Shown here: in pieces, positions 1-64,000 of the stretch
Layout of the letters: the number at the start of each line of letters is the position of its first letter
Numbering within the stretch: the stretch's first letter is position 1
Assembly: GCA_965178125.1 (NCBI GenBank)
Contig: OZ237767.1
Location: 496,001-560,000 of the forward strand
Reading direction: 5' to 3'
DNA length: 64,000 nucleotides
Source of the DNA: Bilabrum cf. latius
Taxonomy: Eukaryota
The notes under the pieces: model-generated
Database searches by the model: none
Seen by the model: only the letters and a program-made list of their open reading frames with translations
What the model was told of the DNA's origin: nothing
Translations under genes and position numbers: made by a program

Positions 1-1999
1 GCTCAACGGCTCTAGCATAATCCCGCTGCAGCGTGTGCAGCTCGCTCGACCCCGCCCTGTCCCGCTGCATCGCCTGCTGCTCCAGCTGGCTGCACCTTTC
101 CTGCAGCAGGTGTGCGTCGCGCCTCCACTGCGAGATCTCGGCCTCGAGACGCGCCCGGTTCTGCTGCCCCGTCGCGAGCGAGCGCTTGCTCTGCAACAAC
201 TCTGACGTCACGCGTGCCGCCTCCTGCCTCGCGAGCCTTGCCTGCTCTCGGGCGCTGGCGAGCGCCCGCTCCAGCTCCCGCACGTGTGCCGTGGATGCAG
301 TGGATGACCCGGAGTCGGATCTCCTGACCGCGGGCGCGCTGGTCGCGCTCCTCATCTCCTCCAGCTCCGCTTGCAGCCGGGCCGATTGTTCCCTGACCAA
401 GTCCATCCTGGGTTGGATCTCGTCCAGCTCTCGCTACAGGGTGAGGCTGCCTGCCTCCGAGGTAGACAGCTCCTGCTGGGCCTGCTTGAGCTGCTTGCGG
501 ATCTCTTTGAGCTCCTGCTGGGCCGCCTTTTCCTTGTCCTTGGTCTTGCCAATGGCTTGCTCGACCTTCTTGAGCTTCTTCCTGGTCTTCTTGAGTTCCT
601 CCTTGTCCTGCTCCGCGCTCGACACGAGGTCTCTCATCCGGATGAACTGCGCCTCGGAGCGCCGGAGCTTGGCCTCCGCCTGCTCCGCCCGCTTGGCGGA
701 GTCATCCAGCTTCGCCTGCTTCCTCCGTAGCACGCGCAGCTCCTCCTTCGCCTCTTGCAGAGAATCTTCCGCCTGCCGAGCGCGCCTCACCGCCGCCCGT
801 TTGTCTGCCAGCGCCTTCTCATGCTTCCTCGCGGCCTCCCTAGCCCGCTCGTTGGCTACCTGTCTGGAGTGCTCGGCGTCGTCTAGCACGCTGTTCACCT
901 GCATCTGCATCGCGTACATGTCTCCCGGCATTGCCCCAGACATGTCAGAGTACCCCTGCGGAGACTCATCTTCCTCCGTATCGGACCCGTCGTTTTCCTC
1001 TTCTTCTGCTCCGTCATCTTCCCGAGCCTAGAGCTCATCTTCCAAGAGACCACTGGGTTGCGCTCCTGTCCCTTCGCTCCCCTGGCCCCCTCCCCCTTGC
1101 CCTCCCCGTGCCTCGCCGCCAACAAACACCGCCTCCCTTGCAGATGCCTCGATGGCCGCCTGCAGCTCGTCACCCCACCCCACGTCCTCGTCGCCATCGC
1201 CCTCGCCCCCCGCCCCCCAGTGGGCTTGGCTTGGGCTGCCGTCGCTCTCGCCCCTCCCGTGCAGCATCGGCTGCTGCAGCGAGTACGATTCGTCCTCCTC
1301 TTCGTACTCGTCATCCTCCACGTCATGCAGCTGACCGATGGACGGGGCCTACACCCCCTGGCCCCCCACGTCCGCGATCACGTCGTCCCACAGTGAGTCG
1401 AACCGGCCTGGGCTCGCGGAGGCCAGCCCTGCCTCGCCTGTCCGCGAGCTTGCGCCCGCACCCGCCCCAGTGCCCGCCCCGCTGGCCGGCAGCGGAGGTG
1501 TCACTCCCCTCTCGCTTCCCCCGGCAGTGCTGGGGGTAGCCACTCTGGTCCCACCCTCCGGATCCTCGGCCCCAGGCTGGTGCTGCTCATGGCTCGGGAG
1601 TGGCTGGGGCTAGGGCCCGGCAAGAGGACGCTCGTCGCTGCTGGCCTCCGGGGTGGCGGGTGAACCCGCGGCCTGGGCGGGTTCGCGCGCTCGAGAGTGT
1701 TGCTCAATATGCGAGCTAGATACTGGCCGCTCGGAGTGGCTTGGTGGCTCTTCGTTCTCCGCACCGGCAGCCCCGGCGCACTGGGCAAGTGCTCGCGCCC
1801 CAGATGACTCCAATCGGCCCTGCGCTCCACCACCGTCGCCATCCACCGCATTGCTAGAATTTTCTTGTGCGTCATGCTCTGGATTGGGCTGGAGCCATGC
1901 GGACGGGTCTACCACCCCGTGGTCTTCCAAGTCTGAACCATCGGAACCCGAATCAGCGAACGAGTTGTCTTCATACAAGTCGTCGTCGCTCGCAGACAT
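1..1999 (-). CDS. Coiled-coil protein with acidic low-complexity N-terminus; 3' end runs off the window; 4 in-frame TAGs read as sense
   Basis: ORFs 1610-2014, 1349-1543, 1028-1321 and 434-943 share one frame and are separated only by TAG (1610, 1349, 1028, 434). ATG at 1999. The E/K/R/Q-rich heptad sequence continues past TAG 434 (SLTL*RELDEIQPRMDLVREQSARLQAELEEMR) to the window edge. Confidence 0.85.
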
Positions 2000-2490
2000 T
2001 CTAGAACACTGCACCGAAATTCTCGAGTGATCGCAAAATTTAGGGCAGAAGCCTAGAATTCATTCAAGAATAGCGAGCCCTGGCCCGGGGTGCCACAGAC
2101 GGAACAAGGAGGGCGTGCGCTTGCAACCTAGCTGGCGCAGCCAATACAAGCCCTCTACCGTTATCCGAGTCAAACGATAGCTCAAATGTACTGACCAATA
2201 GCTTGATGCGCTTGTAGTACACCCGATTCAGATTCTGTTGATGGGTGTAATTCAAACTTTTGCGAGCGGATCGACCGGCGAGCCGTGTGCATGACCATGC
2301 ACTGCACACTCGCGTGAGCTCCAGCATGCAGCAGCAAGCCTGCCCAAGGCGTGATTACCGTCGTAGATCCGGATTCCACACTATGCAGATGGCGAGTGCA
2401 ACGCTGCATCTAGACCAGGCTGTCATTTAAACCCACGCGAACCAAACATGCACATCGAAACACACGCACCCCCCAACACCTTCTCATCCA

Positions 2491-4133
2491 TCACGAGTTG
2501 GTGCGGTCCTTGGATCCGGAGCGAGACGAGGCGCCGGCACCCGCCTCTGCCTCGCTCACTGCGTCACTGCCTGTGGCGCTGGCAGGCACAGCCCCGCCCG
2601 ATCCCATGCCCCCTGACGCCATCACGGAGCCGGCGGTCTTCGAGTCGAGACGAGGCGGCTGCTCTGCTGCAGGCTCCTGGCGGGCACTGGGCGCAGCCGA
2701 CCTGCCGGCACCGCCCTTCAATTCCCCCTCCAATTCCCCTGCCGCAGCTGACAGTGTCCCGTCCCGCGAGGCCGCTGCCGGCGTCGCAGCGGTGGCCGGA
2801 TCCAGCTAACCGCCGACTGGCTCCGATGCCGTCCTCGGGCCCGCCCCTTCCCCTTCCCCTGCTCCTGCTCCTGCTCCTGCCCAGCGACCGGCCCTACTCT
2901 CCGCCCTGACCCTCTCCGCCTACTTGAGCACCCTGTCCTCTGCCTTCCTCCTGCCAGCGGCCTCCTTCGCCTCCTAGCCCTCTCTCCTCCTTCGTGCCCC
3001 CGCCTCTCTCCTGTACCGCCCGATGTAGTCGTCCTCGGTTCGAGTCGGCAGCACGTCCTCGGGGTATTCTGCCCTCAGGCGGGCAGTGGGGAGGTAGCCC
3101 GCCCCTGGGATGAAGTGGCTGAACACCTGCTCCACCATGGGGTGCAGTACCGGCATGCTCGCCTCGACCGGCTCCACATTGTCCTCCGCCACGTAGGTGA
3201 TGCTGGATTCCATGGGGCGCTCGTTCAAATCAGCCAGGCAGTGGTAGAACGGTTGGGAGCGGCCGCGGGGGAGATGATCCACACCCATTGCTTTCACCTG
3301 CAGAGATGGAAACTGGTGAAATTGTCAACCACGGGACAAGATCTATGCACAAGCTCCTATGCTGGGTTCAACCGGCGATTGCGTCACGATGCATTTGCAC
3401 AGCACAAACCGTGCCACGCAGCCACTGGTCGATGGGGGGGCAAGCCGAAATGTAAATAATGTGCATTGCTGCACCCGGGCGCCAGATTGGCTCGTATGTT
3501 GCATCATCCTGGCACTATTCACGAGAAAGGCAATAAAACGGCCCCAACGGCAACTGCAGCTCAACGGAGCGGCGTAGGAGTCCCGCGCAACCCCATTGGT
3601 TCCACGATCAAATCATAATACTTAGTTTTATTGCTCCTCTACCTTGACACAAGTCCAGGAAGATCCCAAGAGCACCATTCAATCGGATCAATCAGCAACG
3701 CAAGTACGCATCAGCTCACCCACTCTTCCGGCATCTTGCAAGCTTTGTGCCAGCCAAAAATCACAAACTTGTAATCATATTTCTTATGACGACAAATCTG
3801 TCCTATGTTGAAGGCAGCATCGTTAGCACGGCCCATAAATGACACTGACTGGAGCCTATCAATTCGCTCTCGAGCCAGCCGAGTGGCGTCGAAAGCCTGG
3901 TCTAAAGCTTTTTGCGCGTCTTCCCCCTTGTAGTTTCGAAATGCTTTGAAATGAGATCGCACGGCATCCGTCAACGTTGCGCCTTCAGGCATGCCAAGCG
4001 GTAGGTAGAAGCGGGCCAATTCTTGAGTTAGTGGCTGCTGCCTTTTTAAGGCTACCTGTTCGAGTTGCCTAGCTGCCTTCAGCATTAGCATGTATGATTT
4101 ACGAGCTAATCGTCTGTGTGATGATGCCGCCAT
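2491..4133 (-). CDS. YccV-like (hemimethylated DNA-binding/HspQ/FBXO21-type) domain protein; exons 4133-3720 and 3297-2491
   Basis: A GTGAGC...CTGCAG intron (3719-3298) joins FNIGQICRHKKYDYKFVIFGW...PEEW to VKAMGVDHLPRGRSQPFYHCL...TYVAEDN...YPED, the YccV-domain pattern. The C-terminal tail crosses TAG at 2974, 2920 and 2806 and ends at TGA 2491. Confidence 0.85.
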
Positions 4134-4279
4134 TTTGACGGGATGCTTGTCCTCTAAGTGCTACAGAAAGTTTCGGAATTTAAGAAACCGAATATTGAGT
4201 GGCTGTTACGTGTAGTTTTAAACTAGGTTTCATTGCACTGTAGAGAGCCGCCCATCTCAACTTGCCCACAAACAGATCT
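4134..4279. promoter_or_regulatory. Probable bidirectional promoter between the YccV-domain gene and MED31
   Basis: 146-bp AT-richer spacer between divergent ATGs. Inferred from position only. Confidence 0.5.
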
Positions 4280-4627
4280 ATGGAGTCCCCAGAACGATCC
4301 ACAGCACGGTTTGAAATTGAGTTGGAGTTTGTGCAGGCCCTAGCAGCGCCTGAGTACTTGCATAGTCTCGCAATCAACGCGTATCTAGAGGATCCTAGGT
4401 TCATACGCTATTTGCAGTACTTGCGGGACACATGGTCACTCAGCGAGTCTCATAGTAAATACGTTGTATTCCCTGCTGCGCATATGATGCTTAAGCTCCT
4501 GCAGACTCCAGAGTTTAGAGAAGAATGTAAGGGCCCCGGCTTTATTGCTTACGCAAGGCAGCTGCTGGACTAGGCCTGGTCGACCTCCGAAGACCCAGCC
4601 TACAAGAAGAGAAAGATCGATTCGTGA
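4280..4627 (+). CDS. MED31: Mediator complex subunit 31 (SOH1)
   Basis: RFEIELEFVQALAAPEYLHSLA...YLEDPRFIRYLQYL...W...KYVVFP...LKLLQTPEFR is the MED31 signature. The frame continues through TAG 4571 (LLD*AWST...) to TGA 4625-4627. Confidence 0.92.
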
Positions 4628-6176: not shown

Positions 6177-9100
6177 TCACTCGTCATACTCATCCCCTTC
6201 ATCCTCCTCCTCCTCCACGATCGCGTCCAGGAGGTCTTCCCCGGGAGACCCCAGCAGGTCCCGCATCGACCCCGAAGGCTCTAAGGGTGCAGGGGCAGGA
6301 GGGGCCTATGCCCCTCCGGAGCCCTGGCCCTGGCCCAAGGAGCCTTGCTGGTGGCCGCCGCTGCCGCTGCCGTTGCTGCTCGGTGGTGGTGCAGTTGGGG
6401 TCACGGGTTGGATATAAGGCTCCGGGTCATTTGGAGGCGGGCTCCCGAATCCGCTTTGCTCAGCCTGTCCCTGTCTCGCCCCGGCCTAGAGGCTGGCGCC
6501 TGAACCACCATGCGATGCGCCTGCACCTGCACTACTGGCGGCAGCTGCTGGTTGTTTCGGCGGCCCCGGCGGCTCAGCAGACAGCGATCCGATCTTTGGT
6601 CCGGCGCCTGTGCCTCGTTCTGCAACAGCGGTGGGCGGCCTGGGCGGCTGTCTGGCCGGTGGAGATGCGGGTGGAGGGGGCTGCAGTGCAGCTTGAGCAG
6701 CCCTGCTGGCAGCTGCTGCACCCGCTGCCTCCATCGCCCCCGGGCTGCCGGAGCCCTTGGGTCCGGAGCCGAAAAGGTCCGTCCACATGCCCGTTGGCCT
6801 CCTCTGTGTTGCCTTGGTGCCCCTGCCCGAAGGAGTCCTCTTGAGCACACCTGGGGGGCTGGGCCCAGGGGGGCTGTTCCCTGGTGTGCCAGGAGCCGCC
6901 CCCATGGTGGGGTCCAAGCCCTGTGGACTACCCCTGCTGGCCCCCGGGGTTAGGTGGGGAGACCCCGCGCGACCCCCGGGCGGGGCCAGGTCCAGCTGGA
7001 TGTGCGACCGGCTGTTGCTGCGGCGGATTACGCGCATGGCCGACATCCCCGAGAGGCCATCGCTCGCCATGGCAGGCACGGGGGGCTGGGACGAGGGCGA
7101 TGGAGCGGGGGCAGGGGCAGGGGCATTGGTGGGTGCGACGGGTTTGGCTGGCAGCTCCGAGTTGCCGGTGCCTGTGCCGCCCCCGCCCTCGCCCGCGCTA
7201 CGAGCCGCTTTCGCAGCAGCTGGCTGACCCGCGGAGGCAGACTGGTCCTTGAAGATCTCTCTGGCGGCAGGGGGCCTGGGAACTGGCCGCTGCGGCTCAC
7301 TATCGGTCTGTTCCTTCGAATGCTCCATGGGTTGTGGGTCCATGTGCGCTGGGGCTGGCACATGGGGAGGTTCACGAGGTTCCTGCGGCCTGGCTTGGGC
7401 CTGGGTCTGGGTCTCCGTCGGCGGGGCGTTGCCCTGCAGCGGTGACTCCTCCTCTTGCTTCTCCTTCTCTTGCACGGGAAAAGGCCTGGAGACGCCTTCT
7501 CCCATCGACCTGAACTCGTCTGCCGATGTACCCACGTTGCTTGCCCCGCCGAACAGCCGCCCGTCGTTCATTGCCACCATGGAATATCTGCTCTGCTTTT
7601 TACGCAGCGGAGGGCTGCCAGAGGCGACCGGGCTGCTGCTGCTGCCCGCATCGCTGCCTGCCCCTTGCCCTTGCCCTTGCTCCGGCTGCAGCACCTGCAG
7701 CGACTGCGGCCTTCTAGGGGACGGAGCGCCCCCCACGGCTGAGTCAGACCCGGTGACGGGAGGCAGCACAACGAAGGACGGCTGCCTGGTCTTGCGGAAT
7801 CCCTTGCTCCCCCCACTTCGCGCGGCCGCCGCCAGCTCCTCCAGCGAGGCGGAGGGCGTGCCGGGGGGAGATGGGGCCCGCCGAGCATCATCATTCAGCA
7901 TCGTAGGACCGGCGCTGGCCCGCCGTGGGGCAGCCGGTCGCATTGTTCTCCGCGGTGGGGGTGGGGGAGGGCCCCCCGACCTGGGCTTGCGTCCGCCCAG
8001 CTGGCCCCTCTTCTCGTACCTGAACTTGGAGACCGCCATGCTGGCCCTGCGCTGCTGCCGCTGTTCCCTGATGGCCTGCTCCTGTCTGAGCCTCACCAGC
8101 CTCTGCCTCGACTCGGGGTCCTCGGGGTTCTGCTGCTGCTTCCGGTGGAGTGCGTACTCCTCTGCGATGTAGCTCTGCTGGTCCTCCAGCTCTGCGACGG
8201 TGACCCGCCGCTTGCGGGGGATCTTATCGCCGCCGAAGGTTCGCTGGGGCTCGCTCTCGGAGGAGGCACCTGTCCCGCTGCTGTCTCCATGCGCCACCGG
8301 CATGGGCCTCTGCCTCACTTGTTCCCTGATCCTGCTGAGGGCGACCACGCTCCTGCGGCGGGCGCGCTCCTCGACCTCTTTCTGACCTGAGCCGTCCGAC
8401 TAGCGGTAGTGCGGGGTCATTCCGGTGAGGCTTGCCGCGGGCGGGGATGGGGCGGCGGGGCGGGCGCTGGGGATGGCAGTCGATGAGGTGGCCGCGAGAG
8501 GGGCGGGTGCAGGGGCCTAGGACTGGGCTTCGATGGCCCGGCTCGCGGCTTGGAAGGCTCCTGCAGGAGGAGGGGTCCCTGGCTTTCTAATGGAAGCGAC
8601 AGACTCAGACGCGGCCCGATCATCTGCAGCCCCCGCGGGAGGTGGGGTGCCTGGCTTGCCCTCCCCCACTGTTGTCCCGATACTCTGGCCACCCTGTGAT
8701 ACCTGCTTCGCTTGTTCCCTGGGCTGTTCCTCGGGAAAATCCCCCAGATCTCTTCTCCTCCTCTCGATCTCGGCTCTTAGTGCAGGTGGCAGTTCCTCGT
8801 CGTCCTCCACACCACCCGCCCCCTTGCCCATCGATACCCCGGCCGCAGCAGCAGCACCCAGCGCCTACCCGCCCGACCCGCCCCCGTTCTCCCCGGGAGG
8901 GGCACCCCTTCCATCGTACGACTTGAACCGCATGCCGGGCACCGCAGTCAGCCCGGCAGCGTGCGACCCATCCCCCTGCTTGGCGATGCCGTCCCTGGCA
9001 GGCGGTTCCCTGCCCCCGTGCGGCAGCTGTTCCCCGGCAATGACCTGCTTGGAGGTGTCTGCGGCCTTGCTGTCGCCCATCCACTCCCAGTCGACTACGG

Positions 9101-11900: not shown

Positions 11901-11931
<31 letters not shown>

Positions 11932-14900: not shown

Positions 14901-16067
14901 GTCTTCCTCCTGGGGGTAGACTTGGCCTGCAGTGGGGGGTGATGAGGCGGGTGGGGGGGGCGGGACTGCGGTGCCCGCTGGCTGCACGGACGCTTGCCGA
15001 TCGACCGGACCGTTTGGGCTGCTAGCCGATGTGCCTTCTGCTGCAGCGCTGGCGCCCACACGGCTGTAGGTCCCGGTTGCATTGGCTGCTCGCCCATGGC
15101 TCTGCCCGGGGCCGCGGCTCGCGACCGCACGCGGCCGAGCCTGGGCACCTGCTCGCCTGGTGGATGGAGCGCCCCGCCCATGGGAAGAAGAAGCGCCCCG
15201 TCCATGGGAAGAAGGAGCGCCCCGTCCATGGGAAGAAGGAGCGCCCCGTCCATGGGAAGAAGAAGCGCCCCGTCCATGGGAAGAAGAAGCGCCCCGTCCA
15301 TGGGAGGACCTGGGCGATGGTCCCTGCTGCTCTGGCGTGCCATACGACCCGCGGATTACTCGAGGGCCGGCAGCTGGCCTGCTCCTGCTCGTGCTCATGC
15401 CCGCCGTGCCTGCGGCAGGGGCGGTGCCACGAACTTGAACGGGGGAGGAGCTGCTTGGCGACGCACGGGAGCGACTGGCTGTGGTTCGCTTCTGCCCCCG
15501 AGGCGCTGTTGAACCACTGCCGTGAGGTGTTCCGTGCACGGTCGATGGTCTTGAGCCACTGGCAGGTTGACGTGCTGTGCGCCTGGTTGCACCACTGCCA
15601 CTGGCCTGCCGACCGTCTCGATGCTGGTGTGCAGGCCCACGGCGCGGAGAACCACTTTGTCTGGCCCCGCCGACTGGGCTGTGCGTAGGTTTGTTAGTAT
15701 GTGTAGGGTTTCGAGCAGGCGTCCGCTGCCGGCGCGCGCGCTGAAGGCGCTGCGACGGCGATGCAGCGACTTCGCTTGCGGCAAATACGTCTCGCTGATC
15801 CCTGGGCGACTTTGGCGAATGGGGGGCCGCCTTTCGCGCGCTGCTTGCCTATGTAGCACTCATGAAACGACTTCGTCTCCCACCAGAACTCGCTGTCGAG
15901 TCTCTAGCCACAGAGGCTGGGCGAATTGACCCAACTCCAGGTGGTGCAGCCCCAGCCTCACGCGCATCTCCACCATCTGGCTGCACCAAATGCCCACGAC
16001 GATCAAATCGCCCTTTCAGGCTGTCTCGATAGCGCCTAGCAATCTAAGCGCTGTTCAGCGCCGCCAT
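6177..16067 (-). CDS. ~3300-aa single-exon, low-complexity (G/A/S/P/R/E-rich) protein with short coiled-coil segments; function unknown; 16 in-frame TAGs
   Basis: Nine track ORFs (ending 14751, 14316, 13923, 13608, 10845, 9528, 8865, 8517, 6486) share one frame. I read the gaps between them: the only interruptions are TAG (16044, 15849, 14751, 14316, 13923, 13608, 10845, 10725, 10704, 10617, 9528, 8865, 8517, 8400, 6486, 6306). First ATG after the upstream TGA is 16067 (MAALNSA*IARRYRD). Ends ...EGDEYDE-TGA at 6177. Confidence 0.82.
15166..15305. repeat. 24-bp coding minisatellite, ~5.8 copies, encoding (SSHGRGA[S/P])n on the minus strand
   Basis: Unit g[g/a]agcgccccgtccatgggaagaa repeats at 15166, 15190, 15214, 15238, 15262 and 15286. 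Confidence 0.95.
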
Positions 16068-16172
16068 CAATAGAGTTATGTTGGAGTGGATCCGCTATCG
16101 TCGCACCGCCTGGTCGCAAGACTCGGAGGTTGCAACCGCAAGTAGATTTCAACAGTGGATGCAGCCTGTGCG
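16068..16172. promoter_or_regulatory. Probable bidirectional promoter between the 3300-aa gene and PIG-U
   Basis: 105-bp spacer between divergent ATGs, which are apparent only once TAG is read as sense. Confidence 0.45.
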
Positions 16173-24500: not shown

Positions 24501-24600
24501 AAGCGGGGCAAGCAACTTGAAGCCCAAGCTACGCCCTGACACCTACCTTGCCGTGGCCCGAGGCTTGCTAGCCAGACGATTCCAACAACCGGTCCTGCAT
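21579..24600 (-). CDS. Long-chain acyl-CoA synthetase (ACSL3/4, LACS9-like), copy 1; predicted exons 24600-24547, 24446-24387, 24273-24168, 24064-21579
   Basis: Motifs IMFTSGSTGLPKG, YLPLAHVLE, GQGYGLTETCG, WFRTGDIG and IIDRKKDL. Three GT-AG introns keep phase (2706 nt total). The 106-nt exon 3 matches the paralog. Three TAGs lie in the predicted exons 1-2. Ends TGA. Exon 1 is the least certain part. Confidence 0.9.
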
Positions 24601-24744
24601 GCTATCCAGCGCCGCGGTTCTCTTTCGGAATACGCTGACCCGGGGAGACCAAGTCGCTGGCTCCGCATTTCGTTCGGCTGCGGTCGCGCGGCGCCGCCGC
24701 TGCGTAGGCATACCACGCTAGCCAGACAGTACGATGACGTCAAT

Positions 24745-37800: not shown

Positions 37801-37873
37801 GGCTTCGCTCAAGTACCAGCGGCGCAAGATCTACGACCGCTTCAAGAACGAGTTCGACGCCATGTACCGCTGA
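34821..37873 (+). CDS. Long-chain acyl-CoA synthetase, copy 2; predicted exons 34821-34877, 34987-35049, 35136-35241, 35409-37873
   Basis: Same AMP-binding motifs as copy 1. GT-AG introns keep phase (2691 nt total). Exon 3 (GLHHRTFGE...LWGVF) is 106 nt, as in copy 1. Ends TGA. Exon 1 is tentative. Confidence 0.9.
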
Positions 37874-53800: not shown

Positions 53801-56800
53801 CCGTCAGTTACTGGGGCAGACGGGTTCTGCTCGAAGTGAGACACCATCACCTCCCGGTTGGTGCCCAGGCCCTCGGGGGTCACGAAGACGATCTCGTTGT
53901 CCTGGTGCCTCACGATGGTGGGCACTCCGCGGGTCCAGCTGGCTCGCGCCGAGCACCCCTCGAGGCCTGTCACTGCCAGCTCCGACTGCGCCACAGCCGA
54001 GTCGGGGCCCAGCTGGGAGGTGCCATCCAGGCCTCGCGCCACGGAGAGGCAGGCACGGTAGAACTGCACCGCCATGCCGGCCGTGGGCAGCACGCCCTGC
54101 GGCAGGCTGCTGGTGCCCATGTCCAGCTCACCATCACCCTCGGGGGTATGCAGGGGCAGCGGCACGCTGCCTGCCTGGAAGGTCTGCGATGCGGACTGCA
54201 GCACCACCGGGCTGGTGATGGGCCCGCGGCCGAAGTTCCTGCCCTTGAGCACAAGCTGCGCCCCTCCCGCCGTGGGGACGTCGTACACGCTGTTGGGCAG
54301 CGCCTCGATCGAGTCAATCTCGGGGTCGTTGTACTGGAACGCCACACCCTCGATGCCTGCCTGCACACCCCTGAGCTTGGGCCCTTGCATGGCACCCTCG
54401 GGCTGCTGTCCGCGCACGCGCAGGGTGATGTCGCGCATGCCCACGCCCGGAGGCATCAGCAGACGCACCCTGTCGTGGGTCCAGCTCAGCACGTGCCCAT
54501 GCCACACCTCGCCCTCGCCGTACACGGTCTCGGACTGGTCGCACACGAGGTTCCGCAGGCGGGTGCCCAGCGGCGCCGCGCCCTCCTCGGCGTCCCTGTT
54601 GGGCCACGCCACAAAGGCGCACGAGGTGTCGTTGTCCCTGGCTCCAAAGTTCTCGCCGTCCAGCTCGACCTCGTAGAAGCCCGCCGCGGGACCCCTGCGC
54701 ACCGTCACCTGCGTGCTGCCGTCCTCGGCCTGCACCACCTCCTGGCTGGCAGTGGCGGCGTACACCGTGGCGCCGGAGATGGAGGGCTTCATGTAGGCGA
54801 AGGCGTCCACCAGCGGCTCCGACTGCACCCCGGCCACGTCGATCACTGCATCCAGGCGAGCGCCGGTGCCTTCAGCCAAGGTGCACTCGATCTCGTCGTA
54901 GGCGGGGCGGTTGGCGGGCGCGGGGATGCGCACGGGGTTGGAGCAGTTGAGCATGCCGGGCGCGCTCGTGTCGGTGATCTCCTGCTCGGTGGCGCGCTCC
55001 TGGGAGAGAGGGCTGTCGCGGCCGATGTGTACGGCCAGCTGAGCTACCACCCCAGTGTCCACCTGAAGCGGGCTGGGCTCGCCGAAGTTGGTGCCGCGCA
55101 CCAGCACGCGCACGCCGCCGCGGGTAGGTCCCCTGGGCAGGCCGTTGAGGGTCACGCTCTGGATGGCGGGGGGCGTGTGGGAGTGCACCATGGGCTGCGA
55201 ATCCTGCCCGCCCACCGTCACGCGGAAAGCAAACGGCATGCCTCCAAGGGCCGGATCCGTGCCGTCGCCCTCGCCCTGGGGCACGCGCAGCTCCAGCATG
55301 GTGTGCGAGCGGCTGCGGCGGGCAGCATCCTGAGTGCGGTGCTGGCACGCGGATGTTTCGTCCTGCCACTGCTCGCCCAGCTCGAACGTGTTGCCGAAGC
55401 CCAGACGCACCTGAGGGCACACCCCGAAGTTGTCACCCACGATCTGCATGATGGCTCCGCGAGTGGGCGTGTACACCACGCCATCGGTAGGGGTGAAGAC
55501 CTCGTCGGGCTGGCCCAGCTGCGCGAGCGACGTGTCGTGCCACACGCGCACCTCGGTGATGGTCGGGGGCGCGTACGAGATGTGCTGCGGGTCCGACACG
55601 ATGGCCTCGTTGTTGCCCGGCGAGTACCGCTTGATGAGCACAGGCACGTTGGATCCGTCGTTCACAAAGTCACCCACGGGACCGGATGGCATGACGCACG
55701 TGATGGTCCACTGGAAGTACCCATCGTCCGCCTCGATGCGGGTGGAGTACTGGCCGTCGGCCGACACCTGCGCGTCCAGGATCTGCGACACGAAGTTGGC
55801 ATCCGACACGGACTGGGTGGTGTCGCTGGGCAGCACGAGCGGGCAGTCCTGCCCGCCCACATCCACCTCTAGACGGTTGGCCTGCCCAATGCGGGCCACC
55901 TTGAGCTCGAGGATCTCTCCGCCCGCCGTGTTGAATGCATTGGCGCCCTGCAGGCCGGCCAGCTGAGGGGACACGTCGTAGTACTGAGCTGCTTGAGACA
56001 CCTGGCTCTTCTCCACGGCGCCGTCGTACGACAGCGACACAAGCGCCACCTTGGCGAACCCGGCATCCACGGGCGTCATCACCTCCACCACAGTATCGGT
56101 CCACGACACCACCTGCACTCTATCTGCCACAGCCGAGAAGTCAGCCGGCGTGGCCGTGGGCGCGATGAGCACGCTGCGGCGGACCTGGTCGTTGAGGTCG
56201 CCCTGCGATGCGCCGAAGTTCCGCCCGTGCACGCGCAGCAGCTTCACGCCTTCCACGCCGGGGAAGAGCGTGAGCTTGTCGTTGGCGTACGGCCCGCTGT
56301 CGTCGATGGGGTCGAGCGACAGGAAGTCGATGCTGGGGTTCTGGTAGGTGAGCACCGTGGGGTTGTTCACCACCACAGACGCGTTGATGGGACCCTCGGT
56401 CACCATGGTGGTGTAGGCCGACATGTCCACGGCGCTGCGCAGGGCCAGCTGGGAGAATCCCGCGGGGGAGTTGACCAGCACGATGGCGCGGTCCCGGCCC
56501 AGGCCTGAGGGCAGGGCGAACTTGATCTTCTGCGTGGCGCTGCGGTCGTACCCCGGGGAGTATGTGGAGCCCGCTGGTGCTGGGACGTACGGCCCCGTGC
56601 CAGACATGGCATCTACAGTGGCGATGCCAGTGGTCAGCGTGCCATCGGCGGTGTGGCCAAAGTCGACCGTCAGCGTGGACCTGCCGTCCGCAAATCCGAA
56701 ATGCTTGCCAGTCACCGTCACCATCTGGGGGCTCTACTCGTCCTGCTCGGCATGCCCGAAGGCGGGTGAGATGGAAATGATCTCGGGGGCGGCGTACGAC

Positions 56801-59800
56801 ACCGTGGCCCGTGACTCGGCTGACTCCTGGTCGGCTACCACCACGACGAAGCTTAGGTCAGCGCCCACACCTGGGGGCACCCGCACCCTGATCCTCGTAT
56901 GGTCCGTCATGATGCGGTACTCGGACTCGCGCAGCACGTACTGGTGGGCCCCGTTGCCGAAGCGCACCTCCTGCAGCAGCTGCTCGTCTCCCGACGGCCC
57001 GAAGTTGCGGCCCACGAGCTCCACGTAGTCTCCGCCCTCGGGGCTTAGCTGCCGATCCTGAGGCATGGCGGGCATGGGGTCCACCGACATGGCATCGCCA
57101 GCCACTGTGGCGGCAAACAGCCCATCTCCATTGAAGCGCTCGATCGAGTCGATTACGGGCAGAGCATAGGCAGTCACCGGGTCTCGGGAAGTCAGCCCGT
57201 CCACCACCACGGTCCACTTGAGGTCGGCACCACCACCCACGGCCAGCTCGCATCGGATGCGCTTGTGATCCACCACCATGCTGCAGCTGCTGCCATCCAC
57301 GGCAAACGTCCTGATCTCGGGATCCAGGGCATTCCCGCTCTCGTCGAAACGGGCCATGACCAGCCTGTACGAGATGGCCACCTTGGCGTCCATCACCGGG
57401 CCAAAGTTGTCGCCGTAGATCTCGATCTCGTCACCGCCCTGCGTGCGTCCTTGCCGCACCGCGTCGATCATATCGGTATCGGCCACATCGTCGAAGCCCG
57501 CGATGGTGGGGGCAGAGTAGCTCGAGTTTGCCTCGAAGATTGCCTCGGTCATCTGCCCGCCCACGCGCAGAGCCCAAGAGTAGCCCGCACCGCGGCCCGG
57601 GATGAGCCGGCAGTTGACGCGGCTGACACCATGCCTGGCCGGGTCACGCACCACCTCGCACGCCCCCGTGGCCTCGTCCTGGTCCATCTCGTACAGGTCG
57701 CTGCCCGCCGGGAAATCGCTCTCCAGCCCGAACTGCACCACCTCGATGGCGTTCATGGCCACAGGTCCGAAGTGCGCGCCGTCAATCTCCACCAGATCGC
57801 CCCCGGATGTGGAGGCGTCCTTTGCACCAGGCCCGAACACGCGAGTGATGACGGGCGATAGGTAGCTCAACTTCTGGGACGAGGGGCTGCTCTCGAGAGT
57901 GATCGATTCCGTGGCATCGCCTGGCATGACGGCCTTGACCTAGTGGTCCCGGCCCACTCCCGCGCCCGTGGTGCACGTCAAGGTCGTGTGCGCAGTGGCC
58001 ACGTCCTTGGTGCAAACCACGCCATCGCTCACGTACTCGTGGTCGGCAGTGGATCCGATGCCGGGGATGGTGCTGGGCCTGGTGCCGTACGTGACCTTGG
58101 GCAGCAGCGCCCTTCCGTTGATGTCCACCAGAGGACCGAAGTTGCTGCCCGTGATCACGATCGTTTGCCCTCCCGCCGAATCCAGCATGTCCAGGCTGTG
58201 CGAGGCACCAGCAGGCACGCCCACGGACTGGATGTCGGGGGCGCCGTATTCGATCTGGTCCGCTGCTGGCACCTGGCTCACCTGCCCCGCCACTCGCACG
58301 AAGAGGCTCAGCTTCTAACCGTACCCCTCCCCAGTCCGGACCTGCAGCTCGTCGTACTCTACGCCCGAGGCCTGCACGGTACCCACGAAGGGGAGGTCAT
58401 CAAAGTCAGCCTCGTTGAAGGGCTCCGGCACATCGGCCTCGAAGCCGTACCTGACCTGCACCAGGTTCAGGTCGATGTCCTCGAAGCCCAGGTTGGTGCC
58501 GGTCAGGACGATCGTCTCGCCGCCCGCAGTGCTCATGGGCCGGGTCTCGGTCAAATGGTTGGGCCCCGCGATGGATGTCACTTTAGGCTCGGCATAGCTG
58601 GTGGACAGGATGGCGCTGGCTGCCACCTGGTCCCCGCGCATGACCACCTTCCAGCGGAAGTTCTTACCCGCCCCCGGAGGCACAGTGCACACGAGGTAGT
58701 CCTCGTCGTTGCCCTCGCTGTCCAAGCTGCCCGACTTCTTGATCTCGCACGTGGCGGTGTAGCTCAGCATGGGCTCCTCGACCTGCGCGTACGTCACCTC
58801 GAGCGGGGCTCCCGCCACGAGGTTAAGGGCCTGGATCTTGACTCCCTGCACATGCGAACCAGACGTGCCGCGGGTCAGCATGCCCTCGATGACGTCCACT
58901 TCATCACGGACTGTGTCGTCGCACGCCCCGTCGCACACCTGGATGCCGGTCAGGGCGGGGGTCTGCGCGAGGTCCCTGGCGCTTAGGTCCGACATGATGA
59001 TGAGCGTCTGCTTGCCCTGGCGCCGGGCCGTCCCGTCGTCCGCCTCCAGCTCGATCTCGTACACTGCGCGCACCAGCTCCCCGTCGTACTCGAACGGGTA
59101 CATGGGGTCGCCCTCCTGAGGGGCCACGTCGTACGTCAGATCCACCGTGAACTGCATCTGCTTGCGGTTGCCATCGTTGGGATCAGCCGTATCACGAAGC
59201 TCCACGATTTCGTAATCGGCAGCCAGGGCTGTGCGTGTGGTGGAACTGTCCGTGAGGTAGTTGCCATCCACGCTGGGGCTGAGTCTGGACACCGACACGA
59301 TGCGGTAGGTGATGTCGTCTCCGTCCTCGTCCTCCGATTGGAGTATCGTGATAACTGAGCCCGTGGTGGCGTTGAGCTCCTCCACCGTGTAGCTCAGCTC
59401 GAGCACCTCTGGGGGGTCGTTCACGTCACGCAGCGTCACGTTGACCTGCCTCCCATCGTCGGCTCCGTCGGGGTCTGCCACGGTCACGAAGAGCAGGTGC
59501 TCCTTCTTGTCCTCGTAGTTGAGGCCCTCTTTAGCCACCGACAGCTGGCCCGTAGTCTCGCCGATCGTGAAGAAGCCGTCGTCGTTGCCGGCCAGAATGG
59601 CCCATTCGAAGTCCGTCGTGGCATCAGGGTCCGTGGCGGTGAATGGCCCGGGCAGCACGTTGGTGCCCACGGCCGAGTTCTCATCCACGCTCACCTGGAT
59701 GGGGTCGGCCTGGTCCATGACGGGCGGGTCGTTCACGTCAATAACATTGATGGTCACCTGCACCTCAGAAGCAGCCCGGTCATCGCCATCCGTCTTGCCA

Positions 59801-62574
59801 ATCACTGTGATGGTGAAGCTCTGCTGGTTGACGTAGTCGATGAGCGCGTTGGCTACCTTGATCTGCCCGTCGCACACCCCGATGCGGAAGACGGGCAGGA
59901 AGTCGCCGTTGGCGTCCTTGGTTGACCCGTCGTTGTTCCCGTCCGGCTTGATGTACCACAGGATGGCCTGATCCTCGCTTGCCGTGGTGCCCTGGATGGG
60001 AACTCCCACGAAGGTGCCCGGCTTGGACCGCTCCTCCACCTCGAAGGGGCTGGTCAGGGGGGGCAGTGTCGGGGGCGCTGGTCTGCACTCGAGGGCGTTC
60101 GACTCAAAATCGCCCTGGGCATCGCAAGTTCGAGTGGCCGACGTGTTGGCTGCAATCACGTATCCAGTTTCGCATTGGAACTCGCACTTCTCCCCCGTGT
60201 ACATCTGGTCGCACTAAGTGTCCGACTGGCAACTAGTCGACACCTCGAAGTCGTCAATCTCCACGCCGTCCCCAGATGCGCCAATGCCCTGCATGCCGTA
60301 CGTGTCGTAGTATGTGGACGTGAACTTGAACACCTCGGTGCCGCCGCAATACACTTTGATGCCGGTCGTGCTCTGCACGACCTTGATGTGCTGCGGCTCG
60401 GAGGAGCTGTCCGTGGGGATGCTGCAGTCCGCCTTGAAGTTGCCCCGCGAGACGTCGGTGTACCCATATGCGCCGTCCACGTACCCGTAGGCCCGCTCGG
60501 TGAATGTGTGTGCCCTTTTCTCTCCGCCCACCAGCTCCACAGAGTACCCGTTGTACTCGCCCGTGTCACGCCTCAGGTAGATGGCTGCCTTGGATCCGTC
60601 GGGGATGATGAATTTGGCCTCCACGGTCAGCTCGCGGTCCGTGGCATGCCTGTAGGTGTGCTTGCTGCCGTGAGCCACAAGCTTGTTCCAGGCGACCGCC
60701 GTGGAGCCGGAGCCACCAGAGGGGCAGGGGACTGAATCGTCGTCGTCATCGCTGGGCTCGTTGTGCTCCAGGCGTCCGTTGCTGTTGATGCTCCACCACT
60801 TGAAGGCGGTCTCCAGCGCGACCTGGTCCGGCTTGAAGGGCACGAGGTAGGGGTACCACGCGGGCCCGTCCATGCTCTCGGACTCGCTGCTGTCAAATTC
60901 GAGCTGGGTGTGGAGGCGGCGGCACGACTTGGAGTTCTCGGGCATGCCCAGCGAGCTGCACTGCGAGCCGCACTGGGGCACTCCGTTCGACCACCCGCCG
61001 CCCCTCGCATACGTGTAGAAGCCAAAAGCCGAGTCATACGTCAAGTAGTACCCGCGAACAATCTTGAGCCCAGAGCCACAGTATGCGTAGCAGCTGCCCC
61101 CTGAGATCGGATCGTCATACTTGCTGGTGGTGCTGTTCATCGCGCCGCAACCAGACCGGCTGAGTCCATCAATGTACCCGTCGAGCCAGCTCTCTGGGGC
61201 CAGCGCCCGCAAGGCAGGCACCTTGCTGGGGAGGTATTTCTTCTGGAGGTAACCGCTGATGCGCTTGATCGTGGCCATTGACATGGGGCTAGAGGTGGGG
61301 GCCGTGTAGATGAGGTACTCGCCCATCCGACCCGGCATCATGCCGCCACCGTAAGAGTACACCGTGTACTGCACTTAAAAGAGTAGGACTGGATGGCCCG
61401 ATTAGCACGGTGCAGACAGGAGTCTCGTGCATGGTATCAAGTCGGTCAGCGCGGATATAACTCACGTAGTAAATGCCGTAGTAATTGTAGTACTAGTAGT
61501 ACTTGCCCATGAACTTGCCCGTGCGAAGACGGTTGGCTGCGATGGGAGATTTCAGATACGACGGGTAGCTCTCCTTTGGGCACTAATGGCACAGACGCTG
61601 TTTCTTTTATTCCGTCGCACGCAATATGCACTTCTTACTTGAGTGGTATCGCATGCTGCCAAACGCGCTCAGGCTCGAGTAAGCGCTGCTAATGCCCTGG
61701 AAGGTCTGCTGGTTGCGAGTAGCGTCACCCGTGGCATCCCCAAAGTCGCCGTTCAGGCCTACGTGGAACTTGTGCTAGCTGCCGATCTTCTCGGTCCATC
61801 CCACCATGACCTGGATATCGGAAGCAGTCCAACCGCCGTAAAGGTAGCGACTCGCCGGAAAGGGTGCCCGGATGGATGCCTGGGCCTGCTCGGTGGAGCT
61901 GGCATAGTAGTCCGTCCGACCGGCGAAGCCGAATATTGCGTTCGTGTAGATGTAGTAGTAGTATTCACTGGTGCCGGACCAGCCAAAATTCCAACCACGG
62001 CCAGCCTGGTAGCCGTAGTAGTAGTAGTACTGCGAGCTTCCGAACATTTGGCCTGCGTTGTGAAGTGGGTGATATGGTGCGTACGTGGTGTGCTGGCGCA
62101 CTGAATGTTTGGACTGAAGCAAAGCCTGTGGTCGATTTGCTCACCTTTGCTCAAGACTCCCCATTCGTAGTTAGACGAGGGGTACCTGGTCCCGTATCCC
62201 ACAGCAAAGATGTAGCGATTGTACCCGCTGTTCATGTCGAGCTTGTTGATCTCGGACTGCTCTGCGCTCGACGGAATGTACTCCAGAATCGCATCACTAT
62301 TTGCCCCACCAAAGCAACCAAAGGAATTCCTGTACTGGTATGGTGCCATGTATGTGTACGTGTAGTAGGGGATGCGATACTGCGTCCATGAACCTGAAGT
62401 CAGCTCGGCCTTGTCTGAGTTCTTGATCGTCGTGATCCTGCGGCTCGATGTGCTCGTGTACTGGCTGAAATCGAGATGAATCTGCAAATCCACTCCAGTT
62501 CCAAGGTTGTCAGACAGCGGATCATCAGCTGCTTGGGCAGATATAGACCCGAGCAGTAGAGCCAAGGCCAACAT
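50857..62574 (-). CDS. ~3800-aa cadherin/IPT multi-pass membrane protein, copy B (inverted duplicate of copy A)
   Basis: Near-identical translation. Over the long exon, coordinates mirror copy A with a sum of 100965. TAG at 61775, 61493, 60214, 58315, 57940, 56734, 52606 and 51043. Ends TGA 50857. Confidence 0.88.
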
Positions 62575-63074
62575 GCTGCGACGCGCAACACTTGGGGAAA
62601 ACTGGAGATAGCTGTGTGGATGCCATCGGTTCATACATTACGAGGAGTATATAAATATTCCTTACACACAAACGATAGTAGAAGGCTGGGCTGCGGCCGA
62701 CAAGACGCGCAGACTGATACTCGTTCGAGACAGCGCTCGACTCGTCGCTCCTGCCAAAGTGGCACCGACTCGGAGTCCGTGACAAACATTGCCGACATCA
62801 TGAACACGCTGGCCGTGGTCTGGCTCTCAGCCAGGCTGATCTCTCTAGCTTGTTGTTTATTGCTCCAGAAAGGACGCATATACTTGTGGCTGACGCTTTG
62901 ATGCAAGCGCAAATTGTCGCGCTGAGAAGCACTGGAGCGACAATGCGAGAAACATTTCGGGTGGCTCCTGTTTCTATGCATCACTGTGACTGGGCAGATT
63001 TGCAGTTTACATACTTTCCGTGAAAAGCTCCATGTTGTGTTCCAAACCGGTCAGCAGAACGCCGAATGACCATT

Positions 63075-64000
63075 TCAGTGTCGCTTGGCCGCCCTCTGCG
63101 CGGCAGTGCTACTCTTCAACGTCACAACCCGGTTGAAAACCGGCTTCTCCGGCTTGCTGTCGCGATCCTGCACAAAAAATCCAAGCCGCTCGAACTGATA
63201 CCTGGCGTATTCTCCCGGCTGCGCGGCAGATGGCTCCACCAGGCCCTGGCAGACCTCTTCGGAGCCCTCGTCAAGGTCGTCCAGCCAATTGCCCGTCTGC
63301 TTGCCGGGCTCGAACACGTCAAACAGAGGCCGGTACAAACGGATCTCCGCCCACATGGGCCGGGACCTCACAGGCCCAGCCGATGCACCCCCCGTCGCGG
63401 CCCCCGCGGCCCCCAGCGCGGCGGCCCCCACTTCCACCTCCGCCTTGTCGTTGTCCGGGTCCCCCACCCAGTGCAGGTTCCCCTTGGGCTTCACGTCCCT
63501 GTCGCCCAGGTAGGTGCACCTGATCTCCTCCACGTCCTCCACGCTGGAGGAGGGCACGCCCCCCTTGAAGACAACGTCCTCGCAGGTCACCAGCCCGCCG
63601 TACCGCAGGCCCACCTTCTTGCCGCCGGGCACGAGACCGAAGAAGCTCTTGTGGTCCTCGAGCCGGAAATCGGCCCGCTCGATGTACATGACCCGGGTCA
63701 GGGGGATGGTCCTGCTGCCTGCCTCCGGGGCGGCAGGGAACAGCGGTGCCTTGAGCAGGATGGGCGCCTCTTGCGGTACGTTGGACAGCACCACGCGGAG
63801 CGGCTTGGTCACTGCGAAGGCCCGGGGGGCGGCCTCGTTGAGCTCTGCCCTCGCCTGTGCCTCCAAACGGTCCAACCGAATTAGGTTCTGCTGGCGGGTG
63901 ACTCCGACCCCCTTGCAGAAGTCGTTGATGATCGTGGGGGTGTAGCCCCTCCTCCTGAGCCCGTTGATGGTGAACAGCCTAGGGTCGTCCCACCCCCTCA
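63075..64000 (-). CDS. QARS: Glutaminyl-tRNA synthetase, 3' part (end of catalytic domain plus anticodon-binding domains)
   Basis: GWDDPRLFTINGLRRRGYTP, PRAFAV, YIERADFR, VGLRYG, KPKGNLHWV, AEIRLYRPLF, YQFERLGFF, VFNRVVTLK. Ends TGA. Confidence 0.95.
   Translation of the reverse strand, partial: RGWDDPRLFTINGLRRRGYTPTIINDFCKGVGVTRQQNLIRLDRLEAQARAELNEAAPRAFAVTKPLRVVLSNVPQEAPILLKAPLFPAAPEAGSRTIPLTRVMYIERADFRLEDHKSFFGLVPGGKKVGLRYGGLVTCEDVVFKGGVPSSSVEDVEEIRCTYLGDRDVKPKGNLHWVGDPDNDKAEVEVGAAALGAAGAATGGASAGPVRSRPMWAEIRLYRPLFDVFEPGKQTGNWLDDLDEGSEEVCQGLVEPSAAQPGEYARYQFERLGFFVQDRDSKPEKPVFNRVVTLKSSTAAQRAAKRH

Follow-up and report, generated by a model that had tools for sequence, protein, structure and literature searches.

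Probable reassignment of nuclear UAG alone to glutamine in an apparently bicosoecid-related lineage

The window, meaning the whole 64-kb stretch of DNA that was analysed, had a GC content of approximately 63% and contained genes on both strands, with and without in-frame TAG codons. Spliceosomal GT-AG introns of approximately 100 nt, the presence of MED31 and PIG-U and the GC content together identified it as eukaryotic nuclear DNA. The end of a gene was defined as its first TGA or TAA, and the features of the window were as follows.

2..2059, minus strand: coiled-coil protein gene, a 686-codon frame without TGA or TAA that runs off the left window end; four TAGs (first bases 1612, 1351, 1030 and 436)
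2491..4205, minus strand: YccV-like gene (hemimethylated-DNA-binding domain), exons 3714-4205 and 2494-3324, TGA at 2491-2493; TAGs at 2976, 2922 and 2808 in exon 2 and another preceding the first ATG in exon 1
4280..4627, plus strand: MED31; one in-frame TAG near the C-terminus, TGA end
6177..16148, minus strand: low-complexity protein, 3324-codon frame; 17 TAGs overall, of which 16 follow the first ATG (16067), TGA end
15930..17762, plus strand: PIG-U, GPI transamidase subunit (PF06728, E 4e-06); five TAGs in the frame, three after the ATG at 16173 (16356, 16485 and 17097), TGA end
17927-19549, minus strand: PAP2 phosphatase; no TAG, TGA end
20087-21196, plus strand: short-chain dehydrogenase; no TAG, TGA end
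21579..24711, minus strand: long-chain acyl-CoA synthetase (ACSL) copy 1 (PF00501, E 8.6e-54), main exon to 24064 and 5' exons 24168-24273, 24387-24446 and 24547 to the ATG at 24711; three TAGs, all in 5' exons (24570, 24413 and 24401) and none in the main exon, TGA end
24745..26532, minus strand: alpha/beta hydrolase (PF00561, E 4.1e-16); three TAGs in the frame, two after the first ATG (26319 and 25233), TGA end
26401..28185, plus strand: Nudix hydrolase (PF00293, E 4.7e-13); 11 TAGs in the frame, nine after the first ATG at 26527, TGA end
28436..34993, minus strand: low-complexity protein, 2186-codon frame; 17 TAGs, of which 14 follow the ATG at 34447 (start of the protein of a relative), TGA end
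35387..37873, plus strand: ACSL copy 2; no TAG in the exon, TGA end
39591..50108, plus strand: cadherin/IPT-TIG membrane protein copy A, 3505 codons (PF01833, PF00028); seven TAGs (codons 387, 610, 1020, 1145, 1547, 2923 and 3444), TGA end
50857..61374, minus strand: cadherin/IPT-TIG copy B, an inverted duplication; six TAGs, at the codons of copy A minus 610, TGA end

Pfam matches of the first gene to coiled-coil families were weak and below the cut-offs, and no Pfam family was found for the low-complexity proteins of 3324 and 2186 codons. The latter gene is conserved, as shown by four protein fragments of a relative (identity about 81-93% in our alignment, 73-91% as listed). Positions 2-34 of PF08755 ended the first frame of the YccV-like gene and positions 34-97 started the second, which places an intron between them, while the three introns of ACSL copy 1 (103, 113 and 100 nt) were all GT-AG. 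MED31 was identified by matches to eight PDB MED31 sequences (best E 2.9e-16) and its TAG lies outside the aligned part. No tRNA gene was present in the window or in ten related loci, and the window contained neither rRNA nor the eRF1 gene. The anticodon-binding half of the glutaminyl-tRNA synthetase of the lineage is encoded within the window.

With TAG counted as a stop the longest stop-to-stop frame of the window was 1376 codons, and with TAG read as sense frames of 3506, 3506, 3324 and 2186 codons appeared. The maximum stayed at 1376 codons when TGA was read as sense under the standard stops, and no single stop other than TAG opened such long frames when it was read as sense. The chance of 3324 codons without TGA or TAA at the off-frame rate was P ~3e-26. 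Thirteen coding sequences with a total of 14,051 codons contained 59 in-frame TAGs and not one TAA or TGA. In a comparison with the two other frames of the genes, in-frame TAG was equally frequent (68 vs 143, or ~71 per frame), whereas TGA was found 0 vs 436 times and TAA 0 vs 77 times. Pfam domains were found on both sides of in-frame TAGs. All 14 gene ends inside the window were TGA and none of the genes requires TAG as its end.

An earlier note on this DNA had reported 74 in-frame TAGs and 15 gene ends, all of them TGA. The sense reading and the uniform use of TGA were reproduced, although the totals were not, as a recount gave about 70-73 TAGs and 14 ends. Its statement that no TAG was accompanied by an internal TGA or TAA or by a frameshift was upheld for about 70 TAGs. 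For individual genes its numbers agreed with ours for the coiled-coil (4), YccV (3), MED31 (1), "3300-aa" (16), PIG-U (3), ACSL copy 1 (3), hydrolase (2) and Nudix (9) genes. The 17 TAGs given for a "2070-aa" gene apply to the whole frame, with 14 remaining from the ATG that is supported by a relative. Of the eight TAGs assigned to each cadherin/IPT copy, copy A has its eight as seven plus one in an upstream frame, possibly its first exon, and copy B was credited with one too many, having six plus one and CAG at codon 610.

The two cadherin copies were 99% identical and differed at 127 bases, 104 of which were third codon positions. The codon differences comprised 98 synonymous and 21 nonsynonymous changes (dN/dS 0.07), and synonymous changes exceeded nonsynonymous ones in each of the eight segments between the seven TAGs, the final three segments holding few differences (1, 4 and 1). 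Each TAG of these copies is flanked on either side by sequence under purifying selection. At codon 610 one C/T change in the first codon position separates the TAG of copy A (41418-41420, plus strand) from the CAG of copy B (59545-59547, minus strand), and a 73%-identical relative had Q at this site.

Contigs from sequencing runs were compared with the window. DNA contigs of run X1 over 15930-35000 were identical to the window, with no other letter among the pieces listed. Runs X5 to X7 each contained the three spliced joints of ACSL copy 1 (24064>24168, 24273>24387 and 24445>24546), which were absent from X1, and had very uneven depth. Their RNA label was a guess of the program. X5 was flagged as probably DNA, and its even background depth of ~10 may stem from DNA. 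Among the listed contigs, 24 TAG codons were covered without a differing letter in X5 and six in X6 and X7. The PIG-U TAGs at 16356 and 16485 were covered in this way by X5 and X7 contigs, and one X5 contig (26517-28330) spanned all nine Nudix TAGs without a differing letter, four of which were also covered by X6 and X7 contigs. Spliced contigs, known from their joints alone, bridged the 60-nt ACSL exon that holds two TAGs.

Relatives of 65-98% identity covered six of the seven TAG sites of cadherin copy A. The nearest relative had Q at codons 387, 610, 1020, 2923 and 3444 and E at 1547 (Q in 5 of 6). At codon 1547 a 90% relative had E and a 75% relative L, and at codon 2923 Q was present at 90% identity and A in a 77% relative. 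A 98%-identical relative had Q at codon 3444 of 3505 followed by the same TGA end. The converse arrangement was also observed, in that predicted proteins of relatives ended where the cadherin gene of the window has CAG (codon 1070, codon 2057 in two relatives, codon 3172 and codon 3276), and the frame of an 80%-identical relative stopped opposite codon 683 (CAG) of ACSL copy 2, just past the TGDIG motif. These are five of 11 distinct frame ends, counting those opposite a window codon and excluding the shared true TGA end. The other six, some of which are perhaps contig ends, faced codons for S, T, E, K and H and a TAG of the window, this TAG being codon 2151 of the 2186-codon gene, exactly opposite which the frame of the relative ended.

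Relatives were also encoded at 80 metagenome loci, and the two nearest (53% identity) had several in-frame TAGs and no other stop. Locus L001 contained a 1517-codon frame with seven TAGs and a TGA end, L002 contained 970 codons with four TAGs, and L016 had one in-frame TAG, while 69 of the 77 remaining loci showed no stop of whatever kind within the alignments. The second gene of L001 encodes TrmO (Pfam E 3.8e-32) and carries a TAG in the conserved PRQ motif, where four PDB homologs have Q (three) or H (one). Opposite its two further TAGs these homologs have P, P, P, F at one and E, E, T, R at the other. The relatives carried their own TAGs at positions other than those of the window. The code would be shared by this set of environmental relatives and hence be a property of the lineage rather than of a single strain.

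Whether UAA has changed its meaning together with UAG, as in translation table 6 where both encode glutamine, is a question on which a GC-rich window of 64 kb offers few data. TAA was scarce in all frames (128 and 140 occurrences per strand) and terminated none of the 14 genes, and the parts of PMC5304391 and PMC11687900 drawn on here describe the two codons as changing together nearly always. On the other hand, the 14,051 codons included 89 CAA and 544 CAG to 59 TAG, so that TAG made up ~8.5% of the glutamine-type codons, and if TAA were used in the same 59:544 proportion approximately ten should have been present in frame where none was, although TAA did occur in the other two reading frames of these genes. 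Reading TAA as sense in addition extended the two longest frames by just 29 and 10 codons and joined no frames, and the TrmO gene of the TAG-using L001 ends in TAA. A table 6 code is quite improbable, and the restriction to UAG proposed by the earlier note is consistent with these few data. TAA appears to be still a stop, judging from its absence in 14,051 codons and from the end of one gene in a relative.

TAG as sense could also stand for another amino acid such as Glu, Ser, Leu or Lys, or for a mixture that results from near-cognate decoding. PMC11687900 lists lineages in which UAG means Glu, Leu or Ser. The E and L opposite codon 1547 of the cadherin gene, the A at 2923, the frame ends of relatives opposite GAG and AAG and the P or E opposite two of the TrmO TAGs would fit such a reading, as would the S, S and H found in a 91%-identical relative at three TAG sites of the 2186-codon gene, a fast-evolving protein in which the first S is unreliable since it sits at the very start of the frame of the relative. 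Columns at the TAG sites of the window were variable in distant homologs, with Q just modestly represented. Against this, Gln codons account for only ~5% of all codons, yet Q was the counterpart in 11 of the 20 paired observations, and BLOSUM62 sums over the 20 pairs favoured Q (59) over E (32) and K (15). The sole difference between the paralogs at a TAG site was TAG/CAG, the sole TAG in a strongly conserved motif stood opposite Q, and the counterparts other than Q were mostly one base from TAG or CAG and in weakly constrained sequence. We regard a different amino acid as very unlikely. Glutamine is most likely the meaning of TAG and the one best supported by these sequence comparisons, which form a small sample with few strongly conserved sites, and the proposal of the earlier note to this effect is borne out by the paralogs, by BLOSUM62 and by the PRQ motif.

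A further reading is that UAG encodes glutamine inside genes and, depending on context, ends some of them, as in Condylostoma and Blastocrithidia. Since gene ends were taken as the first TGA or TAA, a terminating TAG further upstream would escape notice. Several genes also carried a TAG within the last tenth of their length, and the base following TAG was somewhat different from that following CAG (chi-square P 0.02). Yet the only C-terminus that is fixed by a relative has its TAG at 3444 of 3505 opposite Q and the same TGA end, no gene of the window needs TAG to end it, and, in contrast to known ambiguous codes, neither TGA nor TAA was ever found in frame. Such context-dependent use of UAG is a very improbable account of the window. 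It is barely credible that the TAGs are untranslated (pseudogenes, missed introns, U-to-C RNA editing, sequencing or assembly errors), since, although introns do occur in the genome and some of the evidence from RNA is indirect, the TAGs come without other stops or frameshifts, dN/dS is low across all those of the cadherins, the X1 DNA agrees with the window, unspliced contigs of X5 to X7 pass 24 TAGs unchanged where true introns show as joints, and the relatives have TAGs of their own elsewhere.

TAG is translated through. Selection acts on the sequence to either side, and relatives mostly have glutamine or CAG at the corresponding positions. The claim of the earlier note that TAG is a sense codon was confirmed by the frame lengths, by the purifying selection around every TAG and by the identical DNA contigs. 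Taken jointly, the reading of nuclear UAG as a rare glutamine codon with UGA as a stop and UAA most likely a stop throughout the lineage is given a probability of roughly 0.88. Under this reading UAG would be an ordinary, fairly rare glutamine codon instead of a stop. UGA terminates every gene seen, and UAA, which is kept out of the interiors of genes, most likely would still be a stop. By analogy with other lineages where UAG is glutamine, as treated in PMC5304391, decoding would rely on a CUA-anticodon tRNA-Gln that arose from tRNA-Gln(CUG), on a glutaminyl-tRNA synthetase accepting this anticodon and on an eRF1 whose hold on UAG has been lost. PMC5304391 names the way in which the synthetase comes to accept the anticodon as an unknown.

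Codes of this kind have been described in a few other lineages. The passages of PMC5304391 on the fornicate Iotanema spirale report UAG as glutamine with UAA and UGA as stops, discuss a putative UAG-decoding tRNA-Gln(CUA) and note that the GTS motif of eRF1 carries a T32G change. The window resembles what these passages describe in that UAG alone appears to have become glutamine, UAA and UGA are absent inside the genes and UAG seems dispensable as a terminator. It differs from Iotanema, which belongs to an unrelated supergroup and has genes ending mostly in UAA, in being GC-rich with 14 of 14 genes ending in UGA. The ciliate Protocruzia tuzeti and two phyllopharyngean lineages, as presented in the sections of PMC11687900 used here, have the codon table that is proposed here, UAA being uncoupled from UAG. 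In contrast to the ciliates, a group of frequent code changes, the window groups with a bicosoecid stramenopile in the ACSL tree. UAG alone has also been reassigned in non-ciliate nuclear genomes, to Leu in the rhizarian exLh and to Ser in Scotinosphaera (both as cited in that portion of PMC11687900), while the counterparts in the window are mainly glutamine or CAG.

Table 6 itself is found in many ciliates, hexamitin diplomonads, some ulvophytes, Streblomastix and Amoeboaphelidium. The window shares with it the change from stop to glutamine, presumably via mutated tRNA-Gln genes, and UGA as a stop, and differs from it in having no in-frame TAA among the 14,051 codons and in the TAG-using relative that ends a gene in TAA. 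These codons thus gave no sign of the ciliate-type sense UAA of table 6 or of a code without a dedicated stop of the Condylostoma or Blastocrithidia type, whose sense UGA and UAA had no counterpart among the in-frame codons.

The best named match of ACSL was to the bicosoecid Cafeteria roenbergensis (42% identity). In a tree of this single gene with 44 sequences, in which Cafeteria was the sole named protist, the clade of the window and that of Cafeteria were sister groups (SH-like support 0.995). Judged by ACSL, this bicosoecid stramenopile is the nearest relative with a name, and the description of the organism as bicosoecid-like in the earlier note fits this tree. Full-text literature searches found no nuclear TAG reassignment or other nuclear code change in stramenopiles, which agrees with the novelty suggested by the earlier note, absence being no proof. 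We rate the code variant itself as known and rare, and the lineage as new for it. The proposed clade consists of the organism of the window, its relatives sharing 65-98% protein identity and no fewer than two to three more distant metagenomic lineages. It is somewhat more probable than not that this bicosoecid-related clade, with UAG alone changed to glutamine independently of Iotanema and the ciliates, represents the first nuclear code change in stramenopiles. If true, UAG and UAA would have been uncoupled once more, in a GC-rich genome with UGA gene ends, and the half of the glutaminyl-tRNA synthetase in the window may provide a route to how the enzyme accepts the CUA anticodon.

The window, with a GC content of 59-68%, carried eukaryotic nuclear genes, among them MED31 and PIG-U. 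One gene each was found for a PAP2 phosphatase, a short-chain dehydrogenase, an alpha/beta hydrolase and a Nudix hydrolase, and the domain of a YccV-like protein was split over two frames, which indicates an intron there. The larger genes were as follows.

6177-16148 (-): very long low-complexity protein without a Pfam family, 3324 codons
21579-24711 (-): long-chain acyl-CoA synthetase (ACSL), copy 1
28436-34993 (-): very long low-complexity protein without a Pfam family, 2186 codons
35387-37873 (+): ACSL, copy 2
39591-50108 (+): cadherin/IPT-TIG membrane protein, 3505 residues, copy A
50857-61374 (-): cadherin/IPT-TIG membrane protein, copy B
63075-63998 (-): glutaminyl-tRNA synthetase (GlnRS), C-terminal anticodon-binding half, at the window's right edge and cut by it

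Introns were present and short: the 5' part of ACSL copy 1 contained three, all GT-AG, with lengths of 103, 113 and 100 nt. The joints of these introns occurred in contigs of the public sequencing runs X5, X6 and X7 and were absent from those of a further run, X1.

The longest frame under standard stops was 1376 codons, and reading TAG as sense gave frames of 3506, 3506, 3324 and 2186 codons, while nothing comparable resulted when TAA or TGA was read as sense. In the genes' frames, counted with copy B left out, TAG occurred 68 times in-frame versus 143 times in the two other frames (approximately 71 per frame), TGA 0 versus 436 times and TAA 0 versus 77 times. At the off-frame rate of TGA and TAA combined, a 3324-codon stretch lacking both has a probability of about 3e-26. 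From the first ATG onward, the 13 coding sequences contained 59 TAG in 14,051 codons, or 8.5% of the TAG, CAG and CAA total. The two largest non-cadherin frames (3324 and 2186 codons) carried 17 TAG each, with 16 and 14 respectively downstream of the likely start. An earlier note had counted in-frame TAGs gene by gene, and the recount agreed except that cadherin copy B holds one fewer; the three TAGs it gave for ACSL copy 1 are correct in number and are sited in the 5' exons. Its observation that all gene ends were TGA also held, for 14 of 14 ends in the window rather than 15, and TGA was a working stop by its behaviour.

Between the two cadherin copies there were 127 base differences, of which 104 fell at third codon positions; 98 codon differences were synonymous and 21 nonsynonymous, for a dN/dS of 0.07. 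Synonymous differences outnumbered nonsynonymous ones in all eight segments bounded by the seven TAGs, the last three segments having only 1, 4 and 1 differences, and this excess in every segment indicates that the protein is under selection past each TAG as well. The 2186-codon frame matched protein fragments of a relative at about 81-93% identity by alignment (73-91% in the search listing). Judged from sequence, both low-complexity giants are predicted to be real genes, conservation being shown for the 2186-codon one. Frame lengths, the absence of in-frame TGA and TAA and selection across the TAGs together bear out the earlier claim that TAG is a sense codon, which we regard as virtually certain.

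The cadherin copies lie tail to tail as an inverted duplication with arms at 39570-50279 and 50686-61395 that were 99% complementary and separated by 406 nt. Beyond these arms, the complementarity continues at 95-97% in 38326-39515 and 61401-62584, so that the whole spans 38326-62584. With substitutions concentrated at third codon positions, the arrangement has the appearance of a genuine duplication under selection rather than an artefact of fold-back assembly. The long cadherin/IPT frames start at GTG, and mirrored frames at 38270-39163 (+) and 61753-62637 (-), each with a signal-peptide-like start and one TAG, had no Pfam match and may be a putative first exon of these genes. The ACSL genes also form an inverted pair (21552-23870 and 35594-37900) with approximately 93% DNA identity.

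The DNA sequence was also recovered in the public runs. Contigs of X1 over 15930-35000 showed 0 differing letters among the pieces listed, and the identity argues that the window DNA contains no assembly slip. Runs X5, X6 and X7 were RNA-like, with spliced joints and depths of 0 to 653 across bins, although the RNA label is a guess and none of the listed runs is on record as RNA. Among the contigs listed, unspliced contigs with 0 differing letters passed through 24 TAGs in X5 and six in X6 and X7. A 60-nt exon (24387-24446) with two TAGs was bridged by spliced contigs, as judged from their joints. X5 was flagged as probably DNA and had an even background depth near 10. Despite that flag it contained spliced contigs and a depth range of approximately 100-fold, and it may represent RNA on top of DNA present at about 10-fold depth. 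Coverage in the RNA-like runs was by far the deepest for ACSL, reaching 653, and transcript-like contigs of ACSL copy 2 mapped to copy 1 with 121 differing letters, which account for nearly all of the mismatches between run contigs and window.

The amino acid was addressed through paralogs and relatives. At cadherin codon 610, copy A reads TAG and copy B reads CAG. At the cadherin TAG sites, compared with the proteins of the closest relatives, the nearest relative had Q at codons 387 (66% identity), 610 (73%), 1020 (65%), 2923 (90%; A in a further relative at 77%) and 3444 (98%) and E at codon 1547 (90%; L in a further relative at 75%), with codon 1145 outside the relatives' coverage. In the 2186-codon gene, a 91% relative had S at sites 1174 and 1359 and H at site 1364, site 1174 being at the extreme start of that relative's frame. 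The relatives' frames, as cut by a standard-code gene caller, were then aligned to the window. In the cadherin gene, frame ends faced a window CAG at codons 1070, 2057 (two relatives), 3172 and 3276; in ACSL copy 2 this was so at codon 683, directly after the TGDIG motif. Of the further ends, those facing TCG and ACC may be contig ends, others faced GAG, AAG and CAC, one exactly faced a window TAG (codon 2151), and one was a true TGA common with the window. BLOSUM62 sums over 20 observations were 59 for Q, 32 for E and 15 for K.

A related metagenome locus, L001, carries as its second gene TrmO with one TAG inside the PRQ motif, where Q was found in three of four PDB homologs and H in one; two other N-terminal TAGs of this gene faced P, P, P, F and E, E, T, R. 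The MED31 TAG lay outside the region aligned to PDB and therefore had no bearing on the residue. A search of 1.84 billion proteins returned as top matches mostly repetitive cadherin-domain proteins that were not orthologs, and the useful matches were three short fragments (P0143, P0214 and P0243). Distant homologs from 80 metagenome loci named no residue, because their columns at the TAG sites were too variable. The paralog pair, the relatives' Q, the CAG-facing ends, the substitution scores and the PRQ motif favour glutamine, as had been proposed from the sequence. Support for glutamine is good, though it comes from tens of sites of which few are strongly conserved, and we place the probability that TAG encodes it at roughly 0.9.

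If TAA were used like TAG, approximately ten would be expected given 89 CAA and a TAG to CAG ratio of 59:544, and none was seen; reading through TAA joined no frames. L001 has TGA at the end of its cadherin gene and TAA at that of TrmO. The code thus looks like one in which UAG means glutamine while UAA and UGA are stops, the UAA end being seen in the relative L001 only, and a reassignment confined to TAG is quite likely. Some UAG codons may, with low probability, also act as terminators, a role that is excluded at the cadherin C-terminus.

The mechanism would be modelled on other lineages with UAG as glutamine, as described in the available part of PMC5304391. By that analogy a tRNA-Gln(CUA) derived from tRNA-Gln(CUG) would read UAG, a glutaminyl-tRNA synthetase would accept it, and eRF1 would be weakened for UAG. 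A tRNA scan found none in the window and none in ten related loci. The base following TAG had a somewhat different distribution from that following CAG (P 0.02), and this comparison gave no strong read-through context. The frame at 63075-63998 matched NCBIfam glnS (E 1.1e-58), with human GlnRS as the best PDB matches (E 8e-48), relative to which a low-complexity insertion of approximately 30 residues separates its two anticodon-binding domains. GlnRS is the enzyme that would need to charge a CUA-anticodon tRNA-Gln. A reading of this frame as a third ACSL copy was ruled out, there being no BLASTP likeness.

The code extends to relatives. In public records, relatives with 65-98% protein identity had frames interrupted at positions that are CAG in the window. 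The conserved C-terminal membrane region was encoded by 80 metagenome loci. The two nearest of these, at 53% identity, had one frame of 1517 codons with seven TAG and one of 970 codons with four, neither containing another stop, and a third, L016, had one TAG in a 672-codon frame. Sixty-nine of the remaining 77 were without any stop inside the alignments and the rest had isolated stops, mostly within gapped intron-like parts. The TAG-carrying relatives and stop-free other loci indicate a trait of a clade with standard-code homologs around it, percent identity being no taxonomic measure in this multi-copy family. In L001, TrmO (tRNA methyltransferase O; 5018-6394) adjoins the cadherin/IPT gene and contains six in-frame TAG.

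Rfam at gathering thresholds gave no match in the window and so no rRNA for placement. The best named ACSL match was Cafeteria roenbergensis at 42% identity, with animals at approximately 36%. In a FastTree phylogeny of 44 sequences the two ACSLs of the window and four unnamed sequences formed one clade, sister to a clade with both Cafeteria paralogs (SH-like support 0.995), in a single-gene tree where Cafeteria was the sole named protist. The earlier suggestion of a bicosoecid-like organism agrees with this tree, and a lineage related to bicosoecids is likely. The Cafeteria genome has approximately 70% GC and 1.7-1.9 introns per gene, a style similar to that of the window, but the available part of its description (PMC6972860) mentions a non-standard code for the mitochondrion only and gives no sign of a nuclear code change.

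The code variant itself is already known. According to the available part of PMC11687900, UAG alone is glutamine in Iotanema spirale, Protocruzia tuzeti and two phyllopharyngean lineages, while UAG is leucine in a rhizarian and serine in Scotinosphaera, a green alga. In the full-text literature, with most subscription journals outside its scope, no nuclear reassignment in stramenopiles was found, in line with the earlier note, and the papers that name both Bicosoecida and the genetic code included none on a nuclear code, the term meaning the mitochondrial code in those checked. Since the runs date from 2025 and most subscription journals were outside scope, a description may already have appeared or be under way; on balance the case is probably unreported.

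The relatives' proteins in public collections are visibly chopped, standard-code gene callers cutting at every TAG, and annotation and metagenome binning of the clade therefore need the right table. Public runs seem to include RNA-like data as well as DNA from the organism, which makes decisive tests feasible. Nuclear code changes are rare and the separation of UAG from UAA is rarer still. An independent case in a new supergroup would be a replicate for how eRF1 drops UAG while keeping UAA and for the adaptation of tRNA-Gln and its synthetase, and it bears on the question of base composition in a GC-rich genome with UGA as a working stop.
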